A stretch of 64,000 nt of DNA from Eledone cirrhosa (GCA_964016885.1 OZ024752.1:44330001-44394000); one strand, 5' to 3'; counted from the stretch's first letter, positions 9,271 through 55,617 are shown. The notes: a model not told the origin generated them from the sequence alone. Translations and numbers: made by a program.

Positions 9271-9448
9271 AGGAAAAGTGTCAGGACCCCAACAGCTGAG
9301 CTCCAGCCATTTCAGCAGCTAGATCTGAACTAAGCCACCAGTATGGCTGGAGCTCTGCCGTCGGGGTCCTGTCTCTTTTCCTATTACCCACTCTACTACC
9401 CTAAGTATCGAGTACTCTGGTGCATTATGGTCCACCTAGTTTCTTTGT
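9271..9448 (+). mobile_element. Fold-back plus tail element in (TA)n, family A (candidate Penelope-like pLTR miniature)
   Basis: Imperfect 40-bp inverted arms at 9271-9310 and 9343-9382, then an unpaired tail (attacccactctactaccctaagtatcgagtac...) shared with 34294-34494. (TA)n on both sides. Confidence 0.7.
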
Positions 9449-9481
<33 letters not shown>

Positions 9482-9660
9482 TAAACTTTCAGATGGAAAT
9501 TTTCCTTGACTGTCATATTTAGAGACTCTGTAGGAAGTAAAGTAATTCTGTCTTGATGTTATATTGGACTATTTTATATCTAGATAGAATTATTACTTTG
9601 AACACTTCATACCAGCTTACTGAAAACTCTCATCAATAATAGTCTGAAGTTTTACATCAT

Positions 9661-9716
9661 CTCACTCTCTCTCATTCTCTCTCATTCTCTCACACACACA
9701 CTTTCTCACACACACA

Positions 9717-9781
<65 letters not shown>

Positions 9782-10460
9782 ATTCTCTCTCTCACTCTCT
9801 CTCTTTCATTCTCTCTCTCACTCTCTCTCTCTCACACTCTCTCACACACTCTCTCTCTCTCTCACACTCTCTCACACACTCTCTCTCTCACTCACACTCT
9901 CTCTCACTCTCACACTCTCTCACACACTCTCTCTCTCACTCACACTCTCTCTCATTCTCTCACACTCTCTCTCACACACACTCTCTCTCTCATTCTCTCT
10001 CACTCTCTCTCATTCTCTCTCACTCTCACTCATTCTCTCTCACTCTCTCTCACTCATTCTCTCTCTCTCTCTCTCTCACTCATTATCTCTCTCTCTCGTT
10101 CATTCTCTCTCTCACTCTCTCACACTCTCTCACTCTCACATTCTCTCACACACTCTCTCTCTCACTCACACTCTCTCTCACTCACACTCTCTCTCACTCT
10201 CACACTCTCTCACACACTCTCTCTCTCACTCACACTCTCTCTCATTCTCTCTCACACTCTCTCTCACACACTCTCTCTCATTCTCTCTCACTCTCTCTCA
10301 TTCTCTCTCACTCTCTCTCACTCATTCTCTCTCTCTCTCTCTCTCACTCATTCTCTCTCTCTCTCTCTCATTCTCTCTCTCTCTCTCTCTCATTCTCATT
10401 CTCTCTCTGACACACGCTCTCTCTCTGTCACTCTCTCTCTCTCTCACTCACTCCCTCCCT
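9661..10460. repeat. (CT)n/(CA)n compound microsatellite
   Basis: Directly visible. Confidence 0.95.
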
Positions 10461-10596
10461 ATCCCACTCCCCCTCCTCTATTAATGTCATATATCCAGTC
10501 ACTGATCTTCACATTTGTTCAAAGACATCCAGACATTTACTATTAAATGTCACTTTTACTGAACTGTTTAGCTGAGGACTTCTAAATTACTTCTTT

Positions 10597-10688
10597 ACAC
10601 ACACACGCACACGCACACGCACACGCATATATACACATACATACACACACACACACACATACACACATACATATATATATATACACAC

Positions 10689-10719
<31 letters not shown>

Positions 10720-10875
10720 CACACACATACATATATACACATACACACACACACATACATATATGCACATACACACACACACACACATACATATATACAC
10801 ATACACATACATACATATATACACATACACATATACATATACACATACACATACATATATACATACACACGCATA
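10597..10875. repeat. (CA)n/(TA)n compound microsatellite
   Basis: Directly visible. Confidence 0.95.
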
Positions 10876-11177
10876 CCCCCCTTAAACTACATCCAATCAC
10901 TTAAAAAGAAATCTTTTTGAATTTTCAAATTGAATAATTAATTAAATTTAGTGAAAATGTTGTTTTGTGAAAGTTTTATTGTGATTTTATGTTTGAATGG
11001 TTTCTTAATTTAATTGAAACTCCTGAAAGGGAACAGTTTAAATATCTCCCTGTTAAACCCTGAAAAAAGGGAGCTGGGGATTTAATGAAACTTGTGATGG
11101 AATAACTGGGCATTTAGACCCCTAAATTCACTGATCTCTTTTGTTGTTGTTTTAAGTACGTGTTCGGTAATTACCAA

Positions 11178-11278
11178 ACATACACACACACACACACACA
11201 CATACACACACAATCAACACACACACACCAACACACACATACACACTAACACACACACACCAACACACACATACACAC

Positions 11279-11352
<74 letters not shown>

Positions 11353-11400
11353 ATACTAACACACACACATACACACACCAACACACCAACACACACCCTC
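11178..11400. repeat. (CA)n microsatellite
   Basis: Directly visible. Confidence 0.95.
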
Positions 11401-12363
11401 ACAAACTCTGTTTTCCTTCTGTGCCATCATGTTTTTTCTTGATATAAACCCTTTGTGGTTAATAAAGAAATTATCATCTTCATTGTTGTTGTTGTTTGGT
11501 ATCCATGTTGTTGTTGCTGTTGTTGTTGCTGTTGTTGTTGTAATATAACACCTTAAACTCCTCTAAAATGTTGTTGTTGCTGTTGTTGTTGTAATATAAC
11601 ACCTTAAACTCCTCTAAAATGAGTTCAACTCAATATTTATCTCCTTAAATCAACAAAAACTTTAGATTGTTTTAAGATTCTTTGGTAATTGAAGAATTTA
11701 AATATCTAATTAAATAGAGACAAGTCTGGCTAAACTAGTGGGGCCATGTTTAATTGGTTTCTCAAGGTTTCCTCTGTGTCATTGTTGTCTCACTGTTGTG
11801 ACATTATGTTGTTGTTGGTGCTGGTGTTGTTGTTGTTGTGTATTTAAAAAAAATCTTTGATCATATTTTTATTTGATTTCCTCTACTTGAAAGATGTTAG
11901 GTAAATTAGCTTTGAGATATTCCTCATTATCTTAAACAGAAGACAGTGTATATATTGTAATAGTGTAGGGAATGGAAGGAGGAGAAGGCAGCACTCTCTC
12001 CATTGAAGTTTTAATATAATGCTGGTTAATTAACAGTGGGGTGTCACCACTGTCTCTTGTGAATCAAAACTGATTCATGCTGGGTTGGATTAGAATAGAA
12101 AACATTTTTTAAAGATCTCTATTTTCGAATTGGAATAAATTAGTTTTAATTTCTATCATATATTTTGTTGATTTTGTTTCAGTTTATTATAAGTTTTCAC
12201 TTCTATATCTCACAACCACCATTACGTACTGATGGTTGTAGTATGTAAATTTAGAGCTTATGAAGAGAGAAGATCAAAACATGTTTTTCCATTTGTAACT
12301 AAAAATTATATGCACAAACATGTTGAGGATCTCATCTCGTGTTTTAGAATGTAAATGTTTGTC

Positions 12364-12559
12364 TTAACCCTTTAGCATTTAAACAAGCTGTATCTAACCA
12401 GAATTCTATCACCTCTTTCTGTTCAAACCAGCTGTAACTGGCCACTCATACTGATGTTAAGGTGTTGTTTTCAAAATAAATAATATCAAAACCTCATAGA
12501 TTCAATATTATGTGAGCTACAACAGTATATATAGAGAAATGTAAATGCTAAAGGGTTAA
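12364..12559 (+). mobile_element. piggyBac-type MITE (TTAA target duplication, CCC...GGG termini)
   Basis: TTAA|ccctttagcattta ... taaatgctaaaggg|TTAA gives 14-bp perfect TIRs around a 188-bp body. Homologous to copies at 15445, 32177, 37560, 54657 and 57141. Confidence 0.85.
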
Positions 12560-13041
12560 AGTCACTTTCAACAAAATCATAAATTTATGAGAACTTACCA
12601 TAAATAAGTTTCTGGTATATGTAGACATAATAAGTATTCTCCATTTACCAATACTCATCAAATATTCTACATTTGTGTCTGAGCATATTTTTTCCTCTTT
12701 TACTTTATCATGTGATATAAAATACTCCTAGAACTTTACATTTTAAAACAATTCCTAACACACTCCTAAAATTCTAAAATGTCATATAAACTTTTTTTTT
12801 CTTTCTATTTTATTTCGAAACCTTTCAGTTAAATAAGAGACTTTCCGACACTCTTTCTACATATCTTTTTTTTTTAATTGTGTTGTTTTTTAATTATGTT
12901 TTTTATTATTATTTATTTGCATTCCAACCGAGGCCATGCTGGGGCACCGCCACTGATTATGGCAGGCTTTTGTTTTAATCACACAAAACTGTCTTGGAAA
13001 AATTAATTGCCTTTCATTTTATTTCTTCTTCAACTGGCTCC

Positions 13042-13123
13042 TAACGGTATTTACAGTACACACCACCCTATACATATATATATATATATATATATTGGCT
13101 GATGTGTACTGTAAATACTGTTA
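13042..13123. repeat. Small inverted repeat enclosing a (TA)n tract (possible TA-flanked MITE remnant)
   Basis: taacggtatttacagtacaca / tgtgtactgtaaatactgtta: 21-bp arms with one mismatch. Confidence 0.55.
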
Positions 13124-13456
13124 TATATATATACATACATATATATACATATATATATATATATATATTAAAAACATTCATTTCGTATTGACAAGGGATT
13201 CTTATGTGAAAACAATTATTGTTGTTGCCGCCATTATGTTGTAAATGGCATTGTTATATTGTTAGACAGAAAACCATCCACCTTCCAGTAACACCCATAA
13301 ATCTTATACATTTGACAGCCATTTCTGGAGTTCAATAAATTCTTGCAGTCAATGAGAAATTTCTCCTGTCTTGAGTAGGCTTTTAAGTTTCTGCATTTCA
13401 AGTTGGATTCTTACAGGATATTTTACAGCTTTCCTTTCTGTTTTGTTTATTTCCCC

Positions 13457-13752
13457 CACCACACTACACCACACTACACCACACTACACTACACCACACC
13501 ACACTACACTACACCACACTACACCACACTACACCACACTACACTACACCACACCACACTACACTACACCACACTACACCACACTACACCACACTACACC
13601 ACACCACACCACACCACACTACACTACACTACGCCACGCCACGCCACGCCACACCACACCACACCACACTACACTACACTACACTACACTACACTACACT
13701 ACACTACACTACACTACACTACACCACACTACACTACACTACACCACACCAC
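13457..13752. repeat. (ACACT/ACACC)n pentanucleotide microsatellite
   Basis: Directly visible. Confidence 0.95.
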
Positions 13753-14207
13753 TTCTGGTAATAGTAACTTGGAAATGAATTCAAGAAGTACTTAACTCTA
13801 TGAAATATGTTATTGACATACTAGCTAATAAGCTAGCTGGGCACAACTTGTCATCATTTCAATTTTCCTTACTCTTATATATTGCTGTCACTGAAGAAGG
13901 AATAATTTCTTTTGTACAAATACGAGAGTTAGTCAATTTTATGCAATTCAAGGAAAAAAAAAGAAAACCTGCATCTCCAAACATGAATGTAATGGTGAGA
14001 TTATATCTAGAATATTTAGGAATGGCAAATAGCTAGACTGCTTTCAACATAAATTGGATATCTTACTTCTGTTTGACACAAATGATTCTGTAATATCTTA
14101 CCATTTCTAGTTTCTGGTTTTATTGATCAACTCTCTCTCTCTCTCTGGTTTTTTTCTTTCTTTCTTTTTCTGTTTAATAACCTGTTATTTTCCCCTTTGC
14201 TCGGCAG

Positions 14208-14238
14208 TTTTCAACATGAACCAGCTTCAATCACTTGA
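14208..14238 (+). CDS. Candidate terminal coding exon ((S)FQHEPASIT*) joining exon 2170-2282
   Basis: A long polypyrimidine tract (14132-14200) ends in ctcggcag|. The phase matches the phase-2 end of 2170-2282 (AG+T = Ser), giving ...YPEEEYSFQHEPASIT*. The exon is short, so the phase match could be chance. Confidence 0.4.
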
Positions 14239-14606
14239 CAGATGATCACGTATCGAAGAATATGATATTCATCTATTTTATAATGACTAGCTTATGTAGA
14301 TTCACATCCTTTGTGTGTTGATGTGCATATGTAGAGATCGATGTATATATATATACGTGTTTGTATATATGTACGTATATTATGTGTGTGTATGTATATT
14401 ATATATGTGTTTGTATGTATGTGTATGTATATTCATGAACAATAGCATAAAATAGTTCTTTTGAAAGACTTATATTATGAAAGAAAATTATTAAGCTTTT
14501 AGTTACAAAGGTGTGGGGCTTTAAAAGGTGGTAACTAGGGCAGAAAGCACTTTTACTAAGTATAATGATTCTAGTATCCATAAGTGAGGAATATAGTCAA
14601 ATAGCT

Positions 14607-15335
14607 TTTGTATATTGAAGTTATATTACCTCAACATTTGTATATTGAAGTTATATTACCTCAACATTTGTATATTGAAGCTATATTACCTCAACATTTG
14701 TATATTGAATCTATATTACCTCAATAATATATTTGTATATTGAAGCTATATAACCTCAACATTTGTATATTGAAGTTATATTACCTCAACATTTGTATAT
14801 TGAAGCTATATAACCTCAACATTTGTATATTGAAGTTATATTACCTCAACATTTGTATATTGAAGCTATATTACCTCAACATTTGTATATTGAAGCTATA
14901 TTACCTCAACATTTGTATATTGAATCTATATTACCTCAATAATATATTTGTATATTGAAGCTATATAACCTCAACATTTGTATATTGAAGTTATATTACC
15001 TCAACATTTGTATATTGAAGTTATATTACCTCAATATTTGTATATTGAAGCTATATTACCTCAATATTTGTATATTGAGGCTATATTACCTCAATATTTG
15101 TATATTGAAGCTATACAACTTCAACATTTGTATATTGAATCTATATTACCTCAACATTTGTATATTGAAGTTATATTACCTCAATATTTGTATATTGAAG
15201 TTATATTACCTCAATATTTGTATATTGAAGTTATATTACCTCAATATTTGTATATTGAAGTTATATTACCTCAACATTTGTATATTGAAGCTATATTACC
15301 TCAACATTTGTATATTGAAGCTATATAACCTCAAC
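14607..15335. repeat. 30-bp minisatellite, about 24 copies
   Basis: Unit tttgtatattgaagttatattacctcaaca with few variants. Confidence 0.95.
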
Positions 15336-15444
15336 TTTTCATCAGTATATTATTATTGAGACTGGAGAAATTTATTAATTAAAAGTCGATCAATATGTCT
15401 CTACAACTCTCTTCTGTTTTACTTCTTTAATCTTGTAAGATTCG

Positions 15445-15648
15445 TTATAGCCTTAGACAAACCAGCCGTATCCAGCCAGAATTCTCTCACCTCTTTCTGT
15501 TCAAACTGGCTGTAACCGGCCAGCCACTCATACTGATGTTAAGGTATGGTTCTCAATAAATGTCAAAATCTCATAGATTCAATATTATGTGAGGTAAAGC
15601 CTTTACCATGAAAATACAATAGTAAATATAGAGTAATGTAAAGGGTTA
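15445..15648 (+). mobile_element. piggyBac-type MITE copy with a decayed left end
   Basis: Body matches 12368-12555 and ends gtaaagggtta. Confidence 0.7.
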
Positions 15649-15764
15649 GACTACTTGTGTAGAGAGCTTATATATAATATTTAAGCAAATAGTCAAAAAT
15701 ATGTTCAGAAGATATGTTTGCAGGCTTAAATATATAAAAATGTGTGTTTACATACTGTGCTCTT

Positions 15765-15810
<46 letters not shown>

Positions 15811-15814
<4 letters not shown>

Positions 15815-16135
15815 AAGTAAGTGTACAAACCAATCAAGAAGGAGAGATAAGAGATTAGTTGTGAGAATTATAAGCCAGTAGTGAAGAGGACAGTGTACTC
15901 AATACGTATTAAGTGCAAGACAAGCTAACAGTAAAAGTAAGCAAGAGAATCGTACGTCATGTAAAAGTGTATATGCACATCGTTAACATAAATATTATTG
16001 TTAGAGAATACAGAAACAAATTGTTGAATAAATTATATTTATTGGTTTACAATTGTTTCAGAAGCCAGACCACAATTTATTTTGTAAAAATAAATTCTAT
16101 CAATTATTGATTTGATAAGAACGGATGATATTAAA
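15811..16135 (-). mobile_element. Possible Penelope-like pLTR remnant next to (TA)n
   Basis: The minus strand reads gaaacaattgtaaaccaataaa (about 16038-16059): GAAA, a palindromic ACAATTGT stem III, GUA, then AATAAA. The CUGANGA half is not recognisable. Confidence 0.35.
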
Positions 16136-17502: not shown

Positions 17503-17538
<36 letters not shown>

Positions 17539-18249
17539 GTAGGTGTAGTTTAGTCTCTGTAAACAGTTGTTATGGGGTTTTCAAACTCTAAACTCTGTAT
17601 AACTATAACAATGCTAATTCCTCTAACCATAGATATTCTCCCCTCTCAAAAAGGTTAGCTATGTAACCTACGAGACAGAACCTCACAATTAGAACATGGC
17701 CCCTCTCAAGCTATGCAACCTACAAGACAGAATCTCAGTTAGAAAAACATGTGTAATGGATCAACTGGAGTGGTGGTTCTATTCAACTTATCTGTCCAGA
17801 TGAGCAGAAATCCTATAATATACAGACTGGAAACAACACATCTGTTGGTTAACAACTGGGCTTTCTGCTGTGGGAACTTTTACCAATGAGTTGTTTTGTA
17901 CAGTCTCATATGTTTGAGAAGTACTACCAACCTACCTGGCAATACTCTAATATTGGTTGCACTTGAGCTTTCATTTAGCTAGTTTATGCAACAGCATTAT
18001 ATATAGTTGTTTATTTAAACATTTTAGCAGTTATATTAGTTCAAATAAAACAAAAATGAAAATTCTTTAAAGATATTTTAATATTTTCCTTTATTTGCAC
18101 CATTATACTAAAAATAATTAAAAAATTTATTAAATACTTAATATTATTTTGCTCAGAAAGTAAACAGATATTAAATTTTTGTTTAGGCAATTTGTAAAAT
18201 GGTATGATATTAAAAACTGAACAGTTTAATATTCTAACTAATAATTCTT

Positions 18250-18435
18250 AGTAATATTTGGCACAAAACCAGCAATTTGGGGGAGGGGGCAGTCGATTAT
18301 ATCAATCCTTGTATATGACTGGTATTTTATTTTGTCAAGTCTGAAAGGGCGAAAGGTAAAGTTGATCTTGGCAAGTTTTGAGATTAGAACATAAAACAAT
18401 AACTAAATAGTGCAAAGATTTTTGTCCGATGGTCT
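18250..18435 (-). mobile_element. Diverged tRNA-derived SINE
   Basis: Reverse of the 20050 family: tttggcacaaaaccagcaatt...actggtattttattttgtcaa...gaaaggtaaagttgatc. Confidence 0.6.
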
Positions 18436-19196
18436 TAAAAATGTTGGTCTTGGTGGGAAATTGAAACCAGAACTTCCAGTGATTCTTTCCTCAGTCTAAC
18501 TACATAGCAGCTTTGTTCAAAAATGATTCCTAAGATTTGTTTTTATTGGTTCCAACCACTTGTCACACTATTGCATCCTTTATATTCATTTTTAAATCTA
18601 AAAATGTTTTCAAAAGCCTCCACTGGCCCTGCAATGATCTTCTTGTGATCCTGCAGACTCTGGTTCTCCACATTCTTATGAAGACTGTCTACATGTCGAC
18701 ACCTGATAAACTGACTCTAGTAGAACAACACTTGTTCATTCACATACACATTAATGTCTTTTTCTCTATAAAACACTCTGGTTTGACATTACCATTTTTC
18801 TTGTTAGTACTTTGAGGAGTTCTTTATATTTCTCTGCCAGTTCCAGCCATTTTCTCTTCTCTTCTCTTATTGCTTTCACATATCTTCATCTAGTGAAACT
18901 TGTTGGCAGCTGACATCTCTTCCACATCAACTACTTATCCTTGTGTAGTTGCCAACTTGTCAACAATACCATGCTAGATTACAGCCAACTTCTTATTATG
19001 ATTTACATTTTACACTTTTCTTCAAATATTTTCCAAAATAACTCATACTGATGTCTTTATGTAAAGATTTTTCTTGTGTCTGTCTTTTGTAAGCTTAGAA
19101 ATATCGCTGTCTATCCTCAACTTTGAAAATATACTGCTGCTTGAATATCATATATATATATATATCATCATCATCATCATCATATATGTGTGTGTA

Positions 19197-19430
19197 TGCA
19201 AAAAGTAAACAGAAATAACAAAGCAAACAACACAGTAAAATGAAGAAATATATTAGTTTAACGCTTGATTTAGTAGGAAAAGTGTGTTAACGTTTTGGAC
19301 ACTAGTCCTTCATCAGAAGGTAGAGTGAGAAATAATAGATGAAATAGAAAGATAGAAAGAAAAGGAAGGAATGGAAAAAATGTTTTTTCTTTAGAAAAGA
19401 CACGCGCGTATTGAGTCAGTCATTTTGAAT
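19197..19430 (-). mobile_element. Penelope-like pLTR remnant with a decayed hammerhead motif
   Basis: The minus strand at 19285-19320 reads cctt CTGATGA a GGAC tagt GTCC aAAA cg tta, with G12 lost at a CpG. Flanked by (TG)/(TA) tracts. Same layout as 58750-58905. Confidence 0.55.
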
Positions 19431-20049
19431 AAATATATATATATATATATGTACACACACAGATACATATATACATACATACTACACACACACATATATA
19501 TTTTATGCAATCTACTTTCTCCTGAAGATCTGTGATAGTGTTGTTACCCCCCCCATCATGACATCACACGTTTCTTCCTCATGATCTATTTATCTCCCTT
19601 CTTTTTTTCCCCTCTTCTTTCTTATCCTATAAAGTTTCAGAAAGTATCTATTTTAGCCAGATATACAATCATCTTCTGATTTTTCCATTTAAAGAGAAAC
19701 AAAATCCGCAAGCGTCCCATTCACTCCACCCCCCACCTCGTCTGACATGGAAATCAAATGAATGTATTGTCTCGGCTGACCAAAACAGAATTCAGTTATT
19801 TGTCGTTAGTGCAACATTACTCATGCAGTTATTTTATTAGGAATATTGTTAGCCTAGTTTCACAGCATCGGTACTGAGAGACATGCTAACGACCTAGCTA
19901 TCAGGTAACACAGCCATGACCTAGCCTTCTTTCTCTCAACCCCCAACACTTTCTACTGTTACTGTAATTATATTCTTTGCCTATTTAGATCAGACTTCTG
20001 TCACTAACCTTTGTTTGTGCCTTAATCAATAACAAGCTTTGTTCTACTT

Positions 20050-20413: not shown

Positions 20414-20452
<39 letters not shown>

Positions 20453-21304: not shown

Positions 21305-21347
<43 letters not shown>

Positions 21348-21614
21348 CCAACAATTTAACAAGGTTCATTGATTAATCAATGAATAAAGTTTTACAATAG
21401 ATTAGAAGCACTCAACAAAGACGTTTTCTGGAGTTATTAATATTACTTCAAAATATTAATAAATATAGACATTCATGTGATCAAATATATTTTATTATAC
21501 ATATTTCAGAGGTACTGAGCTATTTCATCAGTACGTTCTCATCAGATAAAATAAATTGATGTCTGACATACCTCAACTGTGCTGATGTTTCAATTCCAGT
21601 CTTGGCAGTCTTGT

Positions 21615-21674
<60 letters not shown>

Positions 21675-27651: not shown

Positions 27652-27692
<41 letters not shown>
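27265..27692. repeat. (TA)n/(TATG)n microsatellite with a short SINE-tail remnant
   Basis: Directly visible. The remnant catcacagtttaatgtccattttccacgctagca lies at about 27620-27655. Confidence 0.9.
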
Positions 27693-27700
<8 letters not shown>

Positions 27701-28107
27701 TAACAGATTAAAGTTTAAGCAAAGAATCGCTGCTTTCACCCTTAACGGGATCTTCTGAAACTAACAAAGTCAATCTGTGAACACAGAAGTGAATATTTCA
27801 AAAAACGTTGCAACCGGAGGAAGACAGGAAGACGATACTTTGGCCCGTGGAAACGTTCCCTGGCAAAGAACGGGAAAAAAACAAATACAATACGTCATTA
27901 TTTGGAGCGGTGAAAAACAATTACACGTTCACAGATTGACTTTGTTAGTTTCAGAAGATCCCGTTAAGGGTGAAAGCAGCGATTCTTTGCTTAAACTTTA
28001 ATCTGTTATTTTAATAAATATTTGCTCTACGGTTCTTATATATTTGATATATATTTATCCTTATCGAGCCCTCTTTGGATTTTAGTCTTCAAATTTATTA
28101 TTATTAC
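27693..28107 (+). mobile_element. Fold-back plus tail element in (TA)n, family B
   Basis: Perfect 90-bp inverted arms at 27693-27782 and 27927-28016, a 144-bp spacer and a tail of about 90 bp (28017-28107). (TA)n on both sides. Confidence 0.8.
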
Positions 28108-28134
28108 TATATATATATATATATATATATATAT

Positions 28135-30489: not shown

Positions 30490-30631
30490 CAAAAGGGATA
30501 TTTAATTTGTTGGTAATTCAACAAATATATATGTATATATGTTTATAACTGATTCGATATAATATTGTATATATATATATACCTTGATTAAATCTTAACC
30601 ATTTAACATCTCAGGGTATGTCATGTATCAT

Positions 30632-30684
30632 ATTTTGTCTGATGAGGACGTACTGTTGTACCTCCGAAATATGTATAATAAAAT
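30632..30684 (+). ncRNA. Minimal type I hammerhead ribozyme with intact core, inside a 150-bp (TA)n-flanked insert (30580-30730)
   Basis: Stem I AUUUUGU (30632-38) pairs with AUAAAAU (30678-84). CUGAUGA at 30639-45. Stem II GGACGUAC-uguu-GUACCUCC (7 of 8 pairs). GAAA at 30666-69. Minimal stem III U-augu-A, then UA. Predicted cleavage after A30677. AATAAA overlaps the 3' strand of stem I. Confidence 0.85.
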
Positions 30685-30724
30685 GTAATTGATCAAAAGA
30701 ACATCTATTTTATTAATACTTATA

Positions 30725-30775
<51 letters not shown>

Positions 30776-33855: not shown

Positions 33856-34293
33856 CATTTAGCACCATTAAACAGATGCTTAGACATTTTTTCATCTTTG
33901 TATTTTTTCCCTTTACTTATAGAATATTTCTAAAAGCAGCAAAGTGAATATTTTATCATTTGATTAACCTTCAAGCAGTTTTATATCCTCATATATTATT
34001 AAAGTGGTGTCGGTTAAAACATTAGTAATTATAATAGAGAGAGAGAGAGAGAGACTAGACTTTATAATTTACAGTTAATTTACAGTTAATAATTGTAGAA
34101 CTTCTGAAAAAGTTAAGCATTGATATAATTATTTCTATTGTGTGTGTGTGTGTGCGTGCGTGTGCATGTGTGTAACTACAGTTACAGGCGGTGTGTTATT
34201 TGCAGCACTCAAGGCTGTTATGAAGTCCATCTCATGTTGGGTTGTATTCCAGAGTTAAGGCAGCTGTAGTGTGCAATATATATATATATATAT

Positions 34294-34494
34294 GAACAAG
34301 TAAGACCCTGACGGCTGAGCTCAAGCCGTTTCGACGGCTAATTCTGTACTGAATTGCGTACAGAATTAGCCGTCGAAACGGTTTGAGCTCAGCCGTCGGG
34401 GTCTTACTTGTTCCTATTACCCACTCTACTACCCTAAGTATTGAGTACTTTGGTGCGTTATGGTCCACCTGGTTCCTTACCACATTTCCTTCAT
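34294..34494 (+). mobile_element. Fold-back plus tail element in (TA)n, family A
   Basis: 56-bp arms at 34294-34349 and 34358-34413 (2 mismatches), an 8-nt loop and an 81-bp tail homologous to the 9271 copy. (TA)n on both sides. Confidence 0.8.
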
Positions 34495-34519
34495 TATATA
34501 TATATATATATGTGCTTAG

Positions 34520-34684
34520 TCCATTCTGTAAAGTGGTCGTGTATGTGTCACAAACAAAAGCACCCAGTACACACTGTAAATGTGGTTGGCATTAGGAGGG
34601 ACATCCAGCCGTAGAAACCAAACCAAACAGTCATCTGACCTAGATTGCCTCACTCATGTTTTGCAAGGAAAATGGATGTTAAAC
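34520..34684 (+). mobile_element. SINE 3' body, (ATG)n-tail family
   Basis: agcacccagtacacactgtaaa...ggcattaggagggacatccagccgtagaaacc...ggaaaatggatgttaaac. Confidence 0.75.
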
Positions 34685-38715: not shown

Positions 38716-38889
38716 TAGTTATGTAATAAACAACATATAATTATTTCATTTACCAGTGGTTTCTTGAAAGCAAAGAAACCACTGGTAAATGAAATAATTA
38801 TCTTATGTTGTTTATTACATAACTAATAAGCTCTGTAACCTACATAGAGCACTCTTTTTTCTGGACCTTTCCGACGGAATTACTTCATT

Positions 38890-38890
<1 letters not shown>
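38716..38890 (+). mobile_element. Fold-back plus tail element in (TA)n, family C
   Basis: Arms of about 50 bp at 38716-38765 and 38773-38825 (one 3-nt indel), a 7-nt loop and a 65-bp tail. (TA)n on both sides. Confidence 0.75.
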
Positions 38891-45341: not shown

Positions 45342-45412
<71 letters not shown>

Positions 45413-45543
45413 GTGAGGTTTTTTTTACAAAATGAAAAATAACCGAGGTGTCCTACACGAGTGAAAGTATAAAGAAAAAGAGATGAAATCGAAAATGCAA
45501 CTGGAGTCTTATTTTTTTTAAAAATATATATATTTATTTGGTT

Positions 45544-45581
45544 CCTTTACTGGTTTCGCAGTTCTTCTGCTTTTCAAAAGG
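45544..45581 (-). ncRNA. Minimal hammerhead motif (U3-A8 variant), sense copy of element D
   Basis: The minus strand reads CCUU UUGAAAA GCAG-aagaa-CUGC GAAA C-ca-G UA AAGG, followed by aaccAAATAAA. Confidence 0.6.
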
Positions 45582-45653
45582 TGAGTTGAGATGGAGGGTC
45601 TGTGGTTTTTTTCACATCTGTGAGAAAAACCACAGACCCTCCATCTCAACTCA

Positions 45654-45691
45654 CCTTTTGAAAAGCAGAAGAACTGCGAAACCAGTAAAGG
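45654..45691 (+). ncRNA. Minimal hammerhead motif (U3-A8 variant), inverted copy of element D
   Basis: cctt ttgaaaa gcag aagaa ctgc gaaa ccag ta aagg, with AATAAA at 45697-45702. Confidence 0.6.
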
Positions 45692-45767
45692 AACCAAATA
45701 AATATATATATTTAAAAAAAAAATAAGACTCCAGTTGCATTTTCGATTTCATTTCTTCTTCTTTATT

Positions 45768-45823
<56 letters not shown>

Positions 45824-46293
45824 ATATACAGTTATGTGTGTGTGTATCTATGTGTTTGTGAGTGTATCTGCATCCATAAAGCAGTGTTTTATACCACCCT
45901 GCCGTGGGGCTTCACTACCAAATAAGGTGTGGGTTCCCTTACATTTCAAATATTGCCCCCCCCCCCCCCCCCCCCCAACTTCAAGATGTAGGTTTCGCAG
46001 AATTAGAATACTTTGAGTTCTTTTCTCTGCTCTCAGAATGTTCTTCTCGTAGTCTACCAACCTAGAGACATTATCCTTGGGGTTTTAGTCTACCAACCTT
46101 GATAGGTTATGCTCGGGGTTTTATACAAATATTAAAGTGAATAGTCAACAATTAGTCAAAATCTGAATTTACTAAACTGAAACATTTCACAGAAAGAAGA
46201 GAACACAAATGAGAACCAAATACAACTTTAGTATGTTAGAAATTTATTTACAATACTTTAGTTACTAATATATTCACTTTATATACATAATGG

Positions 46294-47295
46294 TCACACT
46301 GATTGTATGTGTGAGTGTGGAACGGAGCCAACAGTTTGTGAACTTGTTGGTAACTGTCCCTTTCTACGTTGGTACTGAACTCCAGTGAACTCATGATGTG
46401 CCTCAGCAAGGTCTTTAAAACACTGGTATTTCACAGCACCATCAACAAGTTCTGCAACATAAGGAAAGTTCTGGAAAGCTCTGTTCTTTAACAGGTGGTA
46501 TAAAACTCGTCTATTTAGCATTGGATATCGAATATTGGCTAAAATGTCCTGAATTTTCGATTTGTCTTGAAGTTTATTGTCTTTCATCCATCCAGTGGCA
46601 GCACTGAGGATGCAGTCCTCGTCTGCATTTATATCATCACTCTGGATCAAGTCCCGAACCATTTCCCATGAACACGAAGACCAAAGCTTACTGCATGACA
46701 ACTGAGTAAAACATACACATAAAACCTGGAATGCTTGGGATCGGATTTGAGCTGGCATAATGTTAGATTCATATAAACTACTGACTATTTCAATACTGAA
46801 GCTGGCTGTGCCATATCCATATTGTATAGTCTTTTCAAGAATCTGCATTATATAATTTTCACAGTGGCTTATAAGAGGCCATACAGAATACTCGACAGCC
46901 AGCCGATATAATGGTACTACATATTCCCGGTGTAACCACACTGCTCCACTATAGAGAAAATATAGAAATCGGCTGAAAATTTGAACACAGTCTGCATCAA
47001 CATGCAGTTTAAGTATTAGGCGAGGGCCGTCATCTACTGCTGTAAGTTGGTTTAATAGCCGAGTAAAAACCTCACTTTTCATGCCAAGGATCATTTTGTG
47101 AGCATTGAAGGTAAGTTCCCCTTCGTTGATATTAAGCAACACATCACTGAGGGCTTCACTATCAAACAACGACTCAAAAGATTGAGTTGTTTTACACTTG
47201 CGAGTACTATCGCCATCTTCATTGACATCAAGTACACCAGCAGATGGAGGTTTGGTGGGATCAGGATACTCCACTTGAGCACTGTATCTTCTCAT
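46294..47295 (-). CDS. BTB/POZ + BACK domain protein (BTBD17-like architecture), 333 aa, single coding exon
   Basis: BTB hallmarks SDVLLNI...FNAHKMILGMKSEVF...IFSRFLYFLYSG. BACK hallmarks LIQSDDINADEDCILSAATGW...ILANIRYPML. ATG context accATG with an in-frame TAG four codons upstream. Acceptor ttttcag| precedes exon start 47370, and minus-strand AATAAA lies at 46243-46248. Confidence 0.93.
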   Translation of the reverse strand: MRRYSAQVEYPDPTKPPSAGVLDVNEDGDSTRKCKTTQSFESLFDSEALSDVLLNINEGELTFNAHKMILGMKSEVFTRLLNQLTAVDDGPRLILKLHVDADCVQIFSRFLYFLYSGAVWLHREYVVPLYRLAVEYSVWPLISHCENYIMQILEKTIQYGYGTASFSIEIVSSLYESNIMPAQIRSQAFQVLCVCFTQLSCSKLWSSCSWEMVRDLIQSDDINADEDCILSAATGWMKDNKLQDKSKIQDILANIRYPMLNRRVLYHLLKNRAFQNFPYVAELVDGAVKYQCFKDLAEAHHEFTGVQYQRRKGQLPTSSQTVGSVPHSHIQSV

Positions 47296-49177
47296 GGTCT
47301 GCCGCTAGTCTCTCCACCATTGTATTCCACTTGAGGGTTTAGGTCATTGTTGGCCCACCACTTTACACAACTGAAAATTTAATTAGAAAAAGAAAAGAAA
47401 AACATCTTTGTAATTAAACAGAAACACATTTGTTTCAAATAGATACAATTAAAGATCCTGTATAAAAACGACCTAAGTTTCATAAGATTTAGAATTTTAG
47501 TCTTCAATTCATAAAAAACAGTTTTACATGAAAACTGTTTTATAAAAGTTATAATTAATTAATTTGTTAATTCTTTCAACCCGTCTTTACAATAATTATT
47601 TAATTTATTCAACGTTTTTATTTAGAAAAGTGAACTGTCTCACCAACTGAAATAGATATTAACAAATAATAAGATTGTTATATTTCTTTCTTAAAAGAAG
47701 TTTTCAGTAATGTTATCACATGCCCTGCTCTGTAGATCGTTAAATTTCATGAAAGTCAATTTCAGAATAAAAGCCATTAACATAACACCAATAAAAACTA
47801 TTATTGTAAGTGGTCCTCCTGTAAGGTGTTACAACCAACTCACACAATTCTGATGTGGACTTCTTCTTCTTCTTCTTCCTCTCGTCCAACCATAAATTCT
47901 TTATCAACAATTAAGAAGCAGTTTTTATTTAAGACCCCCCCCCCCTCTATATATTAACATCTCAGTTGGAAGTATGATAAACATACATATTATTATTATT
48001 ATTATTATTCCCTCAGGTAGGCCTCACACCTACAGAAATAGCCAGGTGTCATACAATATGGTTATATGAAATACCTTATGCAACATTAACTACATAATAA
48101 CAGGTGTATTTACCTAGTTACCTCGTATAGATATAGGTGTAGTTATTAGAATAATATACCTTAACACACACACACCTTAACACACAAACACACACACCCC
48201 TTAACAGAGGCACACACACCTTAACACACACACACCTTAACAGACAGACACACACACACCTTAACAGTAGCACACAGACACACACCTTAACAGAAGCACA
48301 CACACACACACACCTTAACAGAGAAAGACACACACACACACCTTAACAGAAGCACACAGACACACACACCTTAACAGAGACACACACACACATATATGGA
48401 TATTATCAACTCTAATATTACATAATATCTGCTATAGAAACCTCCCATGTAAAGTATATTTAACATTTAAATATTGCGGAAAATTAGACTAAAATTTAAA
48501 TTGAATTTTTCGTTTATAATTCTATAAGTAAAATAATTTTATTGCTTATATATTTAACATTAAATATATATATATATAATAGAAGGAAAAAAATATAATA
48601 TAAATAATATAATATAATATAATATATATATATATAGAATATATAATATCAAATATATAATATAATATCAAATATATAATATAATATATAAAATATATAT
48701 AATATAATATAATATATAAAATAAATATATAATATAAAATATAATATTGAGATTATTTGGGGGTGATTATCAAACACATTTCTTACTGAATGTAAACATT
48801 GTGTGTTTTGTTTTTAGTAAATGAAGTTTATTAATATAACAGCCAGAACACCTAGGCTGTATTTCTCCTCCTATCTCTTTATATCAGCAGTTGGAAGTTG
48901 TCATGGCAACTGTACTAAATTTAAAGGAAATAAATGTGAATATATTTCAGTATTGGAAATGTTGTGAGTGTGGAAACTGTTATAAAAGAAATGTCCCAGA
49001 TATAGATAATGGCATGTTTAAAACAAATAGAAACATGGACAGTTATTCAATTATCTCAACAATAATGTGTAAATCTTTTAAGTGGGTGAAATATACACAT
49101 ATATATGTATACACACACACATATATATATATATGTGCATGTATATATATTTATAATGACAATAGGAAAGACATTAC

Positions 49178-49322
49178 CTTAAGCTGTGTGAAGAAGACAG
49201 TTGTCTCAATCTAATTTTTGTCTCCAATAGAACCACATAGCAGTCTTCTGACTGGCCACTGCCTGATTACTGCTACTGAAGCTACTGCTGCTGCTGTTGT
49301 TACCTTCAACTTAACACTAAAG
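49178..49322 (-). other. Candidate 5' UTR exon of the BTB-BACK gene
   Basis: Minus strand: acceptor ctccttctttatag|, 145 nt, donor aag|gtaatg. Confidence 0.4.
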
Positions 49323-49439
49323 CTATAAAGAAGGAGTTGTACTGGATATGGTGGTGGTGGGGTGGAGTGAAGTGAAAGAGAAGTGTCTTTATTGGTTAAC
49401 TGTGACAAGAAAGCTGCTTGACTCAGACCAGTGGAGCCC

Positions 49440-49934
49440 TGTCTCCTATGTCCCCCAGGTAGATAGCAGCCAACTGGAGCCATGTCTATGTCCCCCCAGG
49501 TAGATAGCAGTCAACTGGAGCCATGTCTATGTCCCCCCAGGTAGATAGCAGTCAACTGGAGCCATGTCTATGTCCCCCCAGGTAGATAGCAGTCAACTGG
49601 AGCCATGTCTATGTCCCCCCAGGTAGATAGCAGTCAACTGGAGCCATGTCTATGTCCCCCCAGGTAGATAGCAGTCAACTGGAGCCATGTCTATGTCCCC
49701 CCAGGTAGATAGCAGTCAACTGGAGCCATGTCTATGTCCCCCCAGGTAGATAGCAGCCAACTGGAGCCACGTCTATGTCCCCCCAGGTAGATAGCAGTCA
49801 ACTGGAGCCACGTCTATGTCCCCCCAGGTAGATAGCAGCCAACTGGAGCCATGTCTATGTCCCCCCAGGTAGATAGCAGCCAACTGGAGCCACGTCTATG
49901 TCCCCCCCAGGTAGATAGCAGCCAACTGGAGCCA
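49440..49934. repeat. 41-bp minisatellite, about 12 copies
   Basis: Unit tgtctatgtccccccaggtagatagcagtcaactggagcca. Confidence 0.95.
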
Positions 49935-50569
49935 GACAGATGTGCTTGACCAGCTCAGTATCTGCAGCTTTGTCCTATGTCAGCTTCATTACTTCAGTAT
50001 GTTGTAGACAAAGATAGAAGTACTGGTAGTTTATATAACAGAATTAAAGGGGTGAGAGTGAGAGGTGATAGAAAGTAGTTCAGTATTGACCACCTTAACA
50101 GAGGAATCTTTGTCTTAGAAGACTACCGGGGTTGGGGGCTGGGGGCAGTAAAACAACTCCTTCTTGTATCTTGTGTGTGTATATATATATATATACACAC
50201 ACAAGATACAAGAACAACTCCTTCTTGTATCTTGTGTGTGTGTGTATATATATATACACACACACACATATATGCATTTATGTGTATACATGTGTGTATG
50301 TATACATATTCTTTCAGAACATCTTGCAGGTGTATTATTTAGCTACCATTATTGTATTGTTCTGTGACTACTCCCATGTATATAGATGTTATATAAAAGC
50401 ATAATTCTCAAACAAATAGGGTCCCGACATTTTGGTGAATAAAATATTCTTTATTAATCAATGAAATAATTTCTGTGGAGAAGATTAATTTACCAACATT
50501 TCTTTTACTGGCCAAACTCCCAGTGGGGCTTATAATTCAGAAATATTTCACACTATAATATATATATGT

Positions 50570-50658
50570 ATATATATATAGAAAGAGAAATATATAAAAT
50601 ATATATAGAAAGAGAAATATATAAAATATGTAGAGGGAGAGACATATAATATATATGT

Positions 50659-50693
<35 letters not shown>

Positions 50694-51363
50694 ATATGTA
50701 GAGAGAGAGAGAGAGACATATATAATATATAATATATATGTAGAGAGAGAGAGAGACATATATAATATATATGTAGAGAGAGAGAGAGACATATATAATA
50801 TATATGTAGAGAGAAAGAGAGACATATATAATATATATGTAGAGAGAAAGAGAGACATATATAATATATATGTAGAGAGAGAGACATATATAATATATAT
50901 GTAGAGAGAGAGAGACATATAATATATATGCAGAGAGAGAGAGAGAGAGAGAAATATATGTAGAGAGATAAATATATAATATATGTAGAGATATATAATA
51001 TATGTAGAGAGAGAAATATATAATATATATGTAGTGGGAGAGACATATATAATATATATGTAGAGAGAGAGACATATATAATATATATGTAGTGGGAGAG
51101 ACATATATAATATATATGTAGAGAGAGAGACATATATAATATGTATGTAGAGAGAGAGAGAGACATATATAATATGTATGTAGAGAGAGAGAGAGACATA
51201 TATAATATATATGTAGAGAGAGAGACATATATAATATATATGTAGAGAGAGAGACATATATAATATATATGTAGTGGGAGAGACATATATAATATATATG
51301 TAGAGAGAGAGAGAGACATATAATATATATGTAGAGAGAGAAATATATAAAATATGTAGAGAC
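50570..51363. repeat. Compound (TA)/(GA) minisatellite
   Basis: Unit approximately catatataatatatatgta(ga)n. Confidence 0.9.
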
Positions 51364-51402
51364 AAAGCAAGCTGCGTTTATGAAACAGTGAGTGAAGTTT
51401 GA

Positions 51403-51840
51403 AAATAAAGTAGAGATGTATGGTTATATTTGACTAAATAAAGTAGAGATGTCTGGTTATATTTGACTAAATAAAGTAGAGATGTCTGGTTATATTTGAC
51501 TAAATAAAGTAGAGATGTCTGGTTATATTTGACTAAATAAAGTAGAGATGTCTGGTTATATTTGACTAAATAAAGTAGAGATGTCTGGTTATATTTGACT
51601 AAATAAAGTAGAGATGTATGGTTATATTTGACTAAATAAAGTAGAGATGTATGGTTATATTTGACTAAATAAAGTAGAGATGTATGGTTATATTTGACTA
51701 AATAAAGTAGAGATGTATGGTTATATTTGACTAAATAAAGTAGAGATGTATGGTTATATTTGACTAAATAAAGTAGAGATGTATGGTTATATTTGACTAA
51801 ATAAAGTAGAGATGTATGGTTATATTTGACTAAATAAAGT
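51403..51840. repeat. 33-bp minisatellite, about 13 copies
   Basis: Unit aaataaagtagagatgt(a/c)tggttatatttgact. Confidence 0.95.
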
Positions 51841-52279
51841 TAGTCTGATAGGGATTTAAAAAAACTCTCTCAATGGTGTCCAATCAATGGAGCAGCCTAC
51901 ACCTGAGATTAATTTGTTAAAGTTGCAGGACACAAACAACACTGGTTGCTAAACGGTGTAGGTGTAAACACACACACACCGCACCGCACCGCACCGCACA
52001 CATATATATAAGTATAAAGTTTTTGTTAATATATGTTTGATGATGTCTGGTAATATTCACCAGAAACTCTAAAAAGTTGTTGAATTGAGAAGAGTTTAAA
52101 CCCCCACAAAACCCACTGAAAAGTTTGCAAATGAGAAGAGAGACAGTAGGACAGGGGGCTAGTGAAGTAGGGGGCTTCTAATGTAAACAAACACAGGGGG
52201 GGGGGGGTAACAAGACAGAACAAACAATGTTGAAATAACTGCTAAGGAGTTGCAGAATAAACAAGTGGTCTATAACTGC

Positions 52280-52428
52280 TAGTAGTAGTAGTGGTGGTTG
52301 TAGTAGTAGTGGTGGTTGTAGTAGTAGTGGTGGTTGTAGTAGTAGTGGTGGTTGTAGTAGTGGTGGTTGTAGTAGTGGTGGTTGTAGTAGTAGTGGTGGT
52401 TGTAGTAGTAGTGGTGGTTGTAGTAGTA
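52280..52428. repeat. (TAG)n(TGG)nTTG compound repeat
   Basis: Directly visible. Confidence 0.9.
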
Positions 52429-53019
52429 CCTTTAAGGTAGGGAATTGGTCAAGTCATTAGAATGTCAGAATACTTTCAAGTATTTCAGTCCAGCTCTCTG
52501 TCTTGAGCTCAACTTTTGTCATTTCTGCTTTCGAGGTCAATAAAGGTATTTGTCCAAGACTGGGGTTAATTCTACCTCCCTCCTCCTCTCTCTCTGGAGA
52601 CAGAATGGGCTCTGCCATGTTTAAAGTGTTCAAGACACACATGTATCACAACGACACTCCTACGATTCTGGGTAGTGGTGGTGGTGGTGGGGGGGTTCTG
52701 GCTTTATACATACAATTACTTCTTCCGACCGTTTAAACTAAAATTACTGGAAGGTGTAGGTGGATTGTTGCTGTTGTGTAGACACAGAGACAGGTAGAGA
52801 TGTTCAATAGGCTGGGGACAATGGAAGTGTAGACTGTCATAAAATGAAGCAATCAGTCAAACAACATTCGATAGAGTGAGGGGACTGGAAGTGTTGATGG
52901 TGACTGTCAGACTAACAAATCAGTGGTGGTAGGTAAATTTGATAATCTTGTCATATTCATGTAAAGCATCATTAAACATATATTGATTGAGCTAGTAAAG
53001 ACTCTTTTCTTCTGGCTAG

Positions 53020-54470
53020 CTACCAGTGTATATATACATCTATCCTCTAGGTACTACCAGTATATAGACAAGTCTATCCTCTATGTACTACCAGTATATA
53101 GACAAGTCTATCCTCTATGTACTACCAGTATATAGACAAGTCTATCCTCTATGTACTACCAGTATATAGACAAGTCTATCCTCTATGTACTACCAGTATA
53201 TAGACAAGTCTATCCTCTATGTACTACCAGTATATAGACAAGTCTATCCTCTATGTACTACCAGTATATAGACAAGTCTATCCTCTATATACTACCAATA
53301 TATAGACAAGTCTATCCTCGATGTACTACCAGTATATAGACAAGTCTATCCTCTATGTACTACCAGTATATAGACAAGTCTATCCTCGATGTACTACCAG
53401 TATATAGACAAGTCTATCCTCTATATACTACCAATATATAGACAAGTCTATCCTCGATGTACTACCAGTATATAGACAAGTCTATCCTCTATGTACTACC
53501 AATATATAGACAAGTCTATCCTCTATGTACTACCAATATATAGACAAGTCTATCCTCTATGTACTACCAGTATATAGACAAGTCTATCCTCTATGTACTA
53601 CCAATATATAGACAAGTCTATCCTCTATGTACTACCAATATATAGACAAGTCTATCCTCTATGTACTACCAGTATATAGACAAGTCTATCCTCTATGTAC
53701 TACCAGTATATAGACAAGTCTATCCTCTATGTACTACCAATATATAGACAAGTCTATCCTCTATGTACTACCAATATATAGACAAGTCTATCCTCTATGT
53801 ACTACCAATATATAGACAAGTCTATCCTCTATGTACTACCAGTATATAGACAAGTCTATCCTCTATGTACTACCAATATATAGACAAGTCTATCCTCTAT
53901 GTACTACCAATATATAGACAAGTCTATCCTCTATGTACTACCAGTATATAGACAAGTCTATCCTCTATGTACTACCAGTATATAGACAAGTCTATCCTCT
54001 ATGTACTACCAATATATAGACAAGTCTATCCTCTATGTACTACCAATATATAGACAAGTCTATCCTCTATGTACTACCAATATATAGACAAGTCTATCCT
54101 CTATGTACTACCAATATATAGACAAGTCTATCCTCTATGTACTACCAATATATAGACAAGTCTATCCTCTATGTACTACCAGTATATAGACAAGTCTATC
54201 CTCTATGTACTACCAATATATAGACAAGTCTATCCTCTATGTACTACCAGTATATAGACAAGTCTATCCTCTATGTACTACCAATATATAGACAAGTCTA
54301 TCCTCTATGTACTACCAGTATATAGACAAGTCTATCCTCTATGTACTACCAATATATAGACAAGTCTATCCTCTATGTACTACCAATATATAGACAAGTC
54401 TATCCTCTATGTACTACCAGTATATAGACAAGTCTATCCTCTATGTACTACCAGTATATAGACATCTATC
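53020..54470. repeat. 34-bp minisatellite, about 42 copies, with an internal palindrome
   Basis: Unit tactacca(g/a)tatatagacaagtctatcctctatg, containing atagac-aa-gtctat. Confidence 0.97.
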
Positions 54471-54656
54471 TTCAATGTGTTGCCAGTCTGTAGAAGTCAT
54501 ATCTTTTAATCTGTGACCCCGCTTGATAATTTTCTTTCCTGTCTTTATCAGTGCTTCAAATCATTGGTGTAAATCTGGCAATACTGTGTTAGTGATATTC
54601 CAGTTAAAACATACGACTATATTATTAGAGAATTGGATTTTTGCTATCAAAATGGT

Positions 54657-54918
54657 TTAACCCTTTACTGTTCACATTACTCTATATATACTATTATGTT
54701 TCCACAGTAAAGGCTTTACCTCACATAACATTTACATTACTCTATATATAGTATTGTATTTTCACAGTAAAGGCATTATTTCACATAATATCGAATCTAT
54801 GAGATTTTGAAGTTATTTACTTTGTGAACAATACCTTAAAATCAGTATGAGTGGCCAGTTACGGCCAGTTTAAAAAGAAAAAGGCTGGATATGGCCGGTT
54901 TAAATGTTAAAGGGTTAA
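54657..54918 (-). mobile_element. piggyBac-type MITE with an internal duplication of about 60 bp
   Basis: TTAA|ccctttactg ... taaatgttaaaggg|TTAA. The segment acattactctatatata...cacagtaaaggc...tcacataa is present twice. Confidence 0.82.
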
Positions 54919-55393
54919 ATATAATGAGGTCTTGAAGAAATGGAACTTTTAAGAAATCTTTGAAACTGCAAGGAATGTCGAACCTCCTGTTAAAAGTTTC
55001 TGCTGTCAGATTAGATAAGAAAGGAGAACCAACAAGTGCCATAACTATATAGTAATACTAATGTCAGATTGTACCTGAATCAGTCAAGGTGTCATATTGC
55101 AGATAAGAGAGTGTTAATGATTTATATTTAATTGGAGAAAACACGCATACATACATGTACCTGAACACGTGTGTATATACACAGTTAATATCTGACACTA
55201 TACATACATGTACCTGAACACATGTATATACACACACAGTTAATATCTGACACTATACTTCATGTTTAATTCTCAGGTAATAATTCTTTCTAAAATTGAC
55301 ATAAGGCCAACTCTTTAGGGGGGAAAGTAAAGTTGATTATATCAACTGCAGTACTTAACTGTTTCTTGATGGGGCCCAGTATTGAGTACCTTA

Positions 55394-55431
<38 letters not shown>

Positions 55432-55435
<4 letters not shown>

Positions 55436-55614
55436 TATTTGGGGAGGGTCATATTGTTATAATATTGCCAGAAATATTTAATAAAACTTACTGTTTTCAC
55501 TTACAGAGTGTTTTATTCTATATTTCTGGCAATATTATAACAATACGACCCTCCCCAAATATAACAATATTTGTTTCAACATATGGTTTCATATCAAAAA
55601 CCTTGCAAAACAAA

Positions 55615-55617
<3 letters not shown>
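55432..55617 (+). mobile_element. Fold-back plus tail element in (TA)n, family E
   Basis: 46-bp arms at 55432-55477 and 55520-55565 (1 mismatch, with imperfect pairing continuing inward) and a 52-bp tail. (TA)n on both sides. Confidence 0.78.

Follow-up and report, generated by a model that had tools for sequence, protein, structure and literature searches.

A 64,000-nt stretch of one strand of the Eledone cirrhosa genome (GCA_964016885.1 OZ024752.1:44330001-44394000; hereafter the window) harbours, between positions 9,271 and 55,617, six short inserts embedded in TA microsatellites, each combining a fold-back hairpin with an unpaired tail, for which an origin from Penelope-like elements (PLEs) is considered here. 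The original prediction, made from the sequence alone, placed each insert between two (TA)n runs, and all six were recovered in the window; they are referred to below by their predicted first positions (9271, 27693, 34294, 38716, 45407 and 55432).

Insert 9271 consists of an inverted tail-less copy on the minus strand (9269–9344), flush with the left (TA)n, and a plus-strand direct copy (9345–9448) ending in a 64-nt tail (9385–9448), with 43-nt arms carrying 6 mismatches. The inverted tail-less copy of 27693 (27693–27782, minus strand) is identical at 90/90 positions to the direct arm at 27927–28016, which lies within a plus-strand segment (27783–28107) that opens with a 144-nt loop, A-rich on this strand, and closes with a 91-nt tail (28017–28107). 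For 34294, an inverted tail-less copy on the minus strand (34294–34349) faces a plus-strand direct copy (34358–34494) with a tail-less end at 34414–34417 and a 77-nt tail (34418–34494), the 56-nt arms differing by 2 mismatches; 38716 (38717–38890, plus strand) pairs an inverted arm at 38717–38763 with a direct arm at 38774–38824, ∼50 nt each with no substitutions and one 3-nt indel, followed by a 65-nt tail. The longest hairpin is that of 45407, where 146 alignment columns contain 5 mismatches and 2 gap columns, with the direct copy on the minus strand (45407–45613), its 62-nt tail on the left (45407–45468) and the inverted tail-less copy on the plus strand (45621–45765), flush with the right (TA)n. 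The arms of 55432 (55432–55617, plus strand) span 55432–55476 and 55521–55565, 45 nt with 1 mismatch, before a 52-nt tail. An inverted, 5′-truncated copy lacking the tail is thus present in 6/6 inserts, and substitutions or indels separate the arms in 5/6 pairs. The predicted asymmetry, with 52–91 nt unpaired beyond one arm, was borne out in 6/6, with arms of 43–146 nt in place of 40–148, and the uniform layout initially described needs amending for the opposite orientation of 45407 and the long loop of 27693.

The distinctness of these hairpins was assessed by self-BLAST of the window after masking of simple repeats, simple and tandem repeats amounting to 30% of its length. Among 25 inverted matches, those with arms less than 1 kb apart are exactly the six inserts (6/25); a low-stringency search gave 21 short-range inverted matches, with the six inserts at 72.5–401 bits and the remaining 15 at 41 bits or below, the best short-range inverted score in 20 dinucleotide shuffles being 50.9 bits. 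No other short-range inverted repeat outside simple repeats is as strong as these six. Only 11% of unmasked bases fall in stretches of at most 500 nt bounded on both sides by (TA)7+, yet these contain 6/6 hairpins; 17 such stretches have at least 100 unmasked bases, and nine of them show a hairpin-tail or a hammerhead core. The occurrence of (TA)n on both sides of every insert is compatible with targeting or with later (TA)n expansion. Local alignment scored 137 between 9271 and 34294 and at most 25 for other pairs, so that, as predicted, only these two share sequence and the six inserts represent five families.

Both copies in each insert are shorter than 330 nt with no open reading frame (ORF) left, and partial tandem copies, the direct pseudo-long terminal repeat arrangement, were found in none of the six. 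The inner end, at which the inversion starts, adjoins a 2–4 nt TA-like word in 6/6. Folding of the tails on the tail-bearing strand gave z-scores of +0.43 to −1.88 relative to shuffles; small stems are present in several tails, none with z below −2, which does not support a special structure, and an AC-rich stem–loop of the Poseidon kind was not seen in these foldings.

A descriptor for minimal type I hammerhead ribozymes, permitting one core mismatch, the U3–A8 variant and unpaired bases, matched the window nine times over both strands. Five matches fall in (TA)n-flanked inserts, two apiece in 27693 and 45407 (one per arm) and one in an insert without inversion at 30582, while the remaining four are weak and unrelated; the core is exact in 3/9, and six shuffles gave 0–2 matches each, none with an exact core. 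A complete minimal motif of the PLE type is therefore present in 2/6 hairpins, in sense orientation on the tail-bearing copy and 115 nt (27693) and 141 nt (45407) from the tail end. The 27693 motif (27947–27997, plus strand) has a 5-bp stem I, a stem II flanked at either side by a single unpaired base, one core change (U4 to A) in both arms and a predicted cut after 27992; that of 45407, with its core from 45577 on the minus strand, is a U3–A8 variant with a predicted cut at 45548. Judged on their sequence, both are taken as PLE-type hammerheads, with cleavage predicted. The minimal hammerhead, named in the original prediction as a PLE trait, is complete in these two, whereas 34294 (34375–34397) and 38716 (38775–38787, within the direct arm) carry the 3′ half only, both on the plus strand, 9271 a decayed form and 55432 none on its tail-bearing strand. 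In the inserts with a whole or half motif (n=5), at least one copy is cut within ∼40 nt of the motif, which is only a hint that cDNA ends often lie near the hammerhead. On its opposite strand, the 55432 tail holds a hammerhead half that was discounted as within chance, and a scan with the plain core pattern showed no enrichment across the window (5 matches against a shuffle mean of 2.19, with 9/100 shuffles reaching 5). The half-motif scan also met, on both strands, a small perfect hairpin at 3087–3114 with 7-bp arms inside GAA...TTC.

Hammerhead cores, intact or decayed, also occur in three (TA)n-flanked solo inserts, which lack an inversion. The insert at 30582–30729 (plus strand), with an exact-core minimal hammerhead at 30639–30677, and its longer relative at 21345–21620 (minus strand), whose tailed 3′ end is flush with (TA)n, form one family; 30582 stops ∼100–110 nt before the end of 21345, and the family shows two alternative 3′ ends within the window. 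No inverted tail partner for 30582 was found in the window. A third solo, at 19186–19432 (minus strand), holds a decayed minimal hammerhead with one core change and no clear stem I. A 20-bp palindrome lies at 21365–21384, near the tail end of 21345.

The family shared by 9271 and 34294 (family A) was followed outside the window by aligning four sequencing runs to 34120–34540 at 80% likeness. Of 16.5 million contigs in X1, which may come from the same sample as the window, 20,745 aligned; X4 contributed 590 of 762,587 contigs, and X10, from a different sample and study under the same species label, 26,044 of 12.5 million raw reads. Family A is abundant, these counts not being copy numbers, since summed contig depth and restriction-site-associated DNA (RAD) reads are biased. 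Under another species label (X5), 3 of 3.3 million contigs aligned, a low level of the family covering reference positions 34314–34446. No 5′ hammerhead core was detected for family A; in one contig under the other species label, a 6-bp complement to the 3′ strand of stem II lies at the very edge of the 30 letters available.

Two (TA)n-joined ends recur in family A, one at 34417 (2224 reads in X10, 80 contigs in X1 and 8 in X4) and one 77 nt further at the tail end (3438 reads, 100 contigs and 14 contigs, respectively). The start of the inversion is accordingly fixed and the inner junctions differ between copies, as had been foreseen. Among the 15 joints listed, nine link an inverted arm reaching 34337–34354 to a direct copy resuming at 34383–34451; in eight of these the direct copy begins again no earlier than 34411, in five of them within the tail itself, indicating inversion with little or no hairpin in those copies. 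Seven of the nine have 2–3 nt fitting either side, and intervening letters are missing from the data for seven; joints were reported only where they skip forward, and so give no proportions of junction types. Two of the nine joints were also recovered in raw reads (2 reads each), and one further junction in 43 reads. The direct copy starts anywhere from 34383 to 34456 across copies, a variable 5′ truncation in which 9271 and 34294 also differ. Before 34367, 1340 reads continue into native upstream sequence as a loose end (median 80 nt, agreement 0.74), and the minus strand of 9322–9344 matches 21 of the last 23 letters of its consensus, in register and by eye; the supposed loop of 9271 is thus part of its inverted copy, which reaches ∼30 nt farther upstream than its direct partner. 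In 34294, both arms carry the same minority variants at the mirrored pairs 34341/34366 and 34347/34360, implying arms derived from one source or homogenised.

With a probability of roughly 0.8, the six inserts are 3′ stumps of endonuclease-bearing PLEs, each generated by one insertion into (TA)n from two head-to-head cDNAs. The complete hammerheads of 27693 and 45407, together with the fixed inversion start and variable inner junction of family A, lend weight to the PLE reading first proposed, in which the inserts were described as ORF-less miniature PLE insertions; the PLE type is supported and an ORF is indeed lacking, but movement as miniature units is not supported. Severe 5′ truncation fits instead, because family A extends upstream and also occurs without arm overlap. 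Two alternative 3′ ends bounding an optional tail are seen in both family A and the 30582/21345 family. PMC8557442 describes PLE insertions as 5′-truncated, often with an inverted truncated copy plus a one-sided tail of 30–40 nt, and gives a (TA)n preference for Naiad and Hydra PLEs, among them octopus families.

Among the PLEs bearing an endonuclease, as set out in PMC8557442 and PMC3846280, the likeness extends to the head-to-head tail-less inverted partner, the one-sided tail and the heavy 5′ truncation, whereas the present inserts are under 330 nt per copy, ORF-less and longer-tailed (52–91 nt, and ∼100–110 nt in the solo family). Hydra-clade PLEs, including Hydra-1_Obim, combine a (TA)n target with a minimal type I hammerhead near the 3′ end, the 27693 layout with an unpaired base each side of stem II is that of the clade (File S2), and the annotation of one member lists a truncated copy in inverted orientation as well as hammerheads on the two strands (PMC8557442); the inserts have no sequence match to the Hydra-1_Obim 3′ end given there, and a clade call would need the reverse transcriptase (RT) and endonuclease. 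Cephalopod Naiad elements, which share the (TA)n target, inverted copy and tail, are described as free of canonical hammerheads, which would fit 55432; the Naiad 3′ ends compared do not match the inserts, and these elements are reported as long inactive in cephalopods, whereas the 27693 arms are identical (PMC8557442). Metazoan PLE hammerheads share the minimal core, the U3–A8 variant (45407) and an extra base after A9, and in Schistosoma dual motifs lie on opposite strands 100–700 bp apart; by comparison with the motifs presented there, 27693 has U4 changed to A in both arms, and its cleavage is predicted only (PMC4209133).

Several points weigh against a PLE origin. Membership is inferred from architecture, ends and ribozyme, not protein, because no parent ORF with RT or GIY-YIG was found: a 73-aa frame in the 27693 loop had 0 matches among 1.84 billion representative proteins, a 43-aa frame from the same loop gave no candidate against longer proteins, and a six-frame scan of the window for PLE motifs returned only tandem-repeat or chance matches, as might be expected of stumps this short, which need not reach the parent ORF. 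Five 13-nt insert motifs were absent from the Craig 2021 supplement by exact match, in which line breaks can hide one, and the octopus Naiad and Hydra 3′ ends compared from that supplement are unlike the inserts. The tails exceed the published 30–40 nt, a range that is descriptive and not a strict criterion. The hammerhead descriptor was written after the motifs had been seen, and Rfam gave no hammerhead among the 150 of 299 matches listed for the window or among the 5/5 listed for 27690–28110. Because the 3′ half motif is common by chance (114 matches in 89,268 strand-nt, or 0.077 per 60 nt), 34294 and 38716 gain little from it; that of 38716 can arise by chance and both descriptor and half-motif scans left 55432 without a hammerhead on its tail-bearing strand, so that the assignment of these two inserts rests mainly on architecture. 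Finally, the read and contig evidence covers one of the five families, with ends taken from 20 of 594 loose ends, such that further minor ends are possible, and junctions from 15 of 145 joints. A 24-nt family A motif had 0 matches in each of the metagenome, viral and prokaryote collections searched.

A mechanism can be proposed in which a GIY-YIG/RT protein would nick the self-complementary (TA)n on each of its strands. Reverse transcription would be primed from one nick at an outer start site, the tail end, and from the other at an inner start site 52–91 nt upstream, beside the TA-like word. The two cDNAs, copied from the same source template, would each terminate prematurely, independently of the other and often close to the hammerhead, before being joined by their free ends, often at 2–3 nt of microhomology; overlapping cDNAs would yield a hairpin with tail, non-overlapping cDNAs an inversion without hairpin, and a single cDNA a solo insert. 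The inserts would be by-products of parents that may be autonomous or short non-autonomous RNAs. In twin priming of L1 elements, the second target strand primes internally to give a 5′ inversion, normally without duplication of the same stretch and with no fixed inner start known. The proposed scheme resembles L1 twin priming in its internal priming by the second strand and differs from it in the duplicated stretch and fixed inner start of the inserts. A further parallel is the in vitro behaviour of purified Poseidon of Anolis (PAc), for which PMC11167929 reports nicking and extension of both strands at AT-rich DNA and RT starts at two internal sites bounding the tail, with hammerhead cleavage not required; that study is not known to derive the inverted copy from two cDNAs. 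Within the PLE reading, the two-primer step appears the likelier route, two separately primed cDNAs being favoured over simple fold-back because the inverted copy can exceed the direct copy. The broader proposition, that the genome contains a very large natural library of PLE integration products, primed on both target strands from two fixed starts on one element RNA, in which a single long-tailed (52–110 nt) twin-start reaction yields hairpins, non-overlapping inversions and solos as a continuum across at least five families, is tentative and held at somewhat less than even odds.

The most serious competitor shares the PLE origin and concerns the mechanism step only: the inverted arm would arise by fold-back self-priming of one cDNA, the odd junctions reflecting later asymmetric deletions at the palindrome centre. 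Palindromes can undergo central revision, and an asymmetric centre deletion could rescue such a model. It would account for the source-specific variants common to both arms and for the near-symmetric centres of 34294, 38716 and 45407 (loops of 7–10 nt), and the TA-like word always found beside the arm end, which could anneal to the target, is compatible with the two-primer and fold-back models alike. Self-priming on an antisense template is favoured for the inverted PLE arm in PMC3846280. Under fold-back, however, the inverted arm should in every case be contained within the direct copy, a rule broken by 9271, where the longer copy is the inverted one, and by the five joints, among those listed, that resume inside the tail while the inverted arm is nearly whole; the short end is also used by solo 30582, which has no inverted partner, and RT starts at two sites on both strands in vitro (PMC11167929). 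Fold-back is considered unlikely, accounting for a clear minority of the PLE case.

Outside the PLEs, it is quite improbable, if most plausible for 55432 and 38716, that the inserts are non-autonomous Helentrons, akin to Helentron-associated interspersed elements (HINEs) and DINE-1, that either landed in TA repeats or gained them by expansion. Such elements are not ruled out by asymmetry on its own, a further point against the PLE assignment, because the 3′ subterminal inverted repeat (subTIR) of a HINE sits 38–60 bp from the end; as described in PMC4067079, the other repeat lies 2–4 nt from the 5′ end and a small palindrome is found near the 3′ end. For the 55432 tail, folding is more stable than in shuffles (z −1.9 on the plus strand, −3.2 on the minus). 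A HINE would be expected to carry a 5–10 bp palindrome 8–35 bp from its 3′ end; small stems occur in several tails, none below −2 on the tail-bearing strand. HINE and DINE-1 subTIRs are, however, short and fixed (12–15 bp), their target is T-rich or TT and they are presented without a hammerhead (PMC4067079), whereas the inserts have arms of 43–146 nt, (TA)n in place of T-runs on both sides, hammerheads in two cases and, in family A, a variable junction in place of a fixed internal region, which makes membership improbable.

There is likewise little likelihood that the hairpin-tail units are miniature non-autonomous elements that move as such, whether MITE-like (miniature inverted-repeat transposable element) or retrozyme-like. 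Non-autonomous PLE derivatives are reported (bioRxiv 10.64898/2026.07.22.740005), and some junctions reach a summed contig depth of 55–256 against 7–15 for long single pieces, so that several loci may share a junction; shared junctions can, however, recur at microhomologies in a large family, family A contains many different junctions, 9271 and 34294 differ at the centre, and native sequence extends upstream (the 80-nt median loose end). The exclusion of MITEs in the original prediction is upheld by the unpaired 52–91 nt beyond one arm and by the differing centres within one family, and a Tc1/mariner-type MITE with a TA target was rejected, terminal inverted repeats at both ends and a uniform size being absent. 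Non-LTR retrozymes, described in the same preprint as tandem arrays running head to tail in which every unit bears a type I hammerhead, were also rejected, the inserts being head to head or solo. A fold-back sequencing or assembly artefact, which the 100% identity of the 27693 arms and the absence of any read or contig spanning the 34294 locus among the four runs might suggest, is scarcely credible given the differences within 5/6 arm pairs, the recovery of arm-to-direct junctions both from independent contigs and from another sample's raw reads, and the fixed arm end within family A.

The architecture and (TA)n preference are already published, octopus PLEs included, and the long tails, density and junction evidence are the points added here; a literature search, most subscription papers and Repbase/Dfam aside, returned no account of hairpin-tail PLE stumps in cephalopods. 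In the Octopus vulgaris assembly PLEs are put at 6.83%, divided among 190 families, and the main text of that study makes no mention of hairpins, palindromes or hammerheads (PMC13282606). The assembly of tandem and inverted PLE insertions is still called undefined in PMC8557442, and later insertion steps are left open by the in vitro work in PMC11167929. Abundant stumps with fixed outer ends and variable junctions would make such models testable by counting junction types in one assembly; if true, two-start priming would explain the inverted PLE pseudo-LTR in vivo and argue against the published self-priming model. It would also imply a long perfect hairpin in roughly every 10 kb, at times within a 3′ untranslated region (UTR), as a double-stranded RNA source in a lineage known for heavy RNA editing, which could, speculatively here, matter for RNA editing and genome stability. 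Hairpin-tail units can readily be mistaken for MITEs, Helitrons or microRNA hairpins, as the sub-threshold Rfam microRNA matches on the 45407 centre illustrate.

Insert 45407 lies 527 nt behind the stop codon, and in the same sense, of a single-exon BTB-BACK ORF (46294–47295, minus strand, 333 aa) with 53% identity to a scallop BTBD17-like protein; its named relatives are only bivalve and gastropod proteins (40–53% identity), with two others at 77 and 95%. Given AATAAA words at 46248, 45767 and 45538, the BTB-BACK 3′ UTR could either include the 146-bp hairpin or stop short of it. Directly left of 9271 stands a 2.1-kb (TA)/(TATG) array (7127–9271), far longer than the flanks of the other five inserts, and preceding it, between TA/TATG arrays, are two head-to-tail 591-nt copies (5793–6383 and 6537–7126; 97% identical), the 3′ part of which translates into a C2H2-like zinc-finger remnant, perhaps a long interspersed nuclear element (LINE) 3′ end. 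A 126-aa open frame at 1454–1834 (plus strand) presumably resembles the C-terminal end of a CR1/L2-type LINE ORF2. A tandem array with a period of ∼34 bp at ∼53500–54400 is one of many minisatellites in the window.

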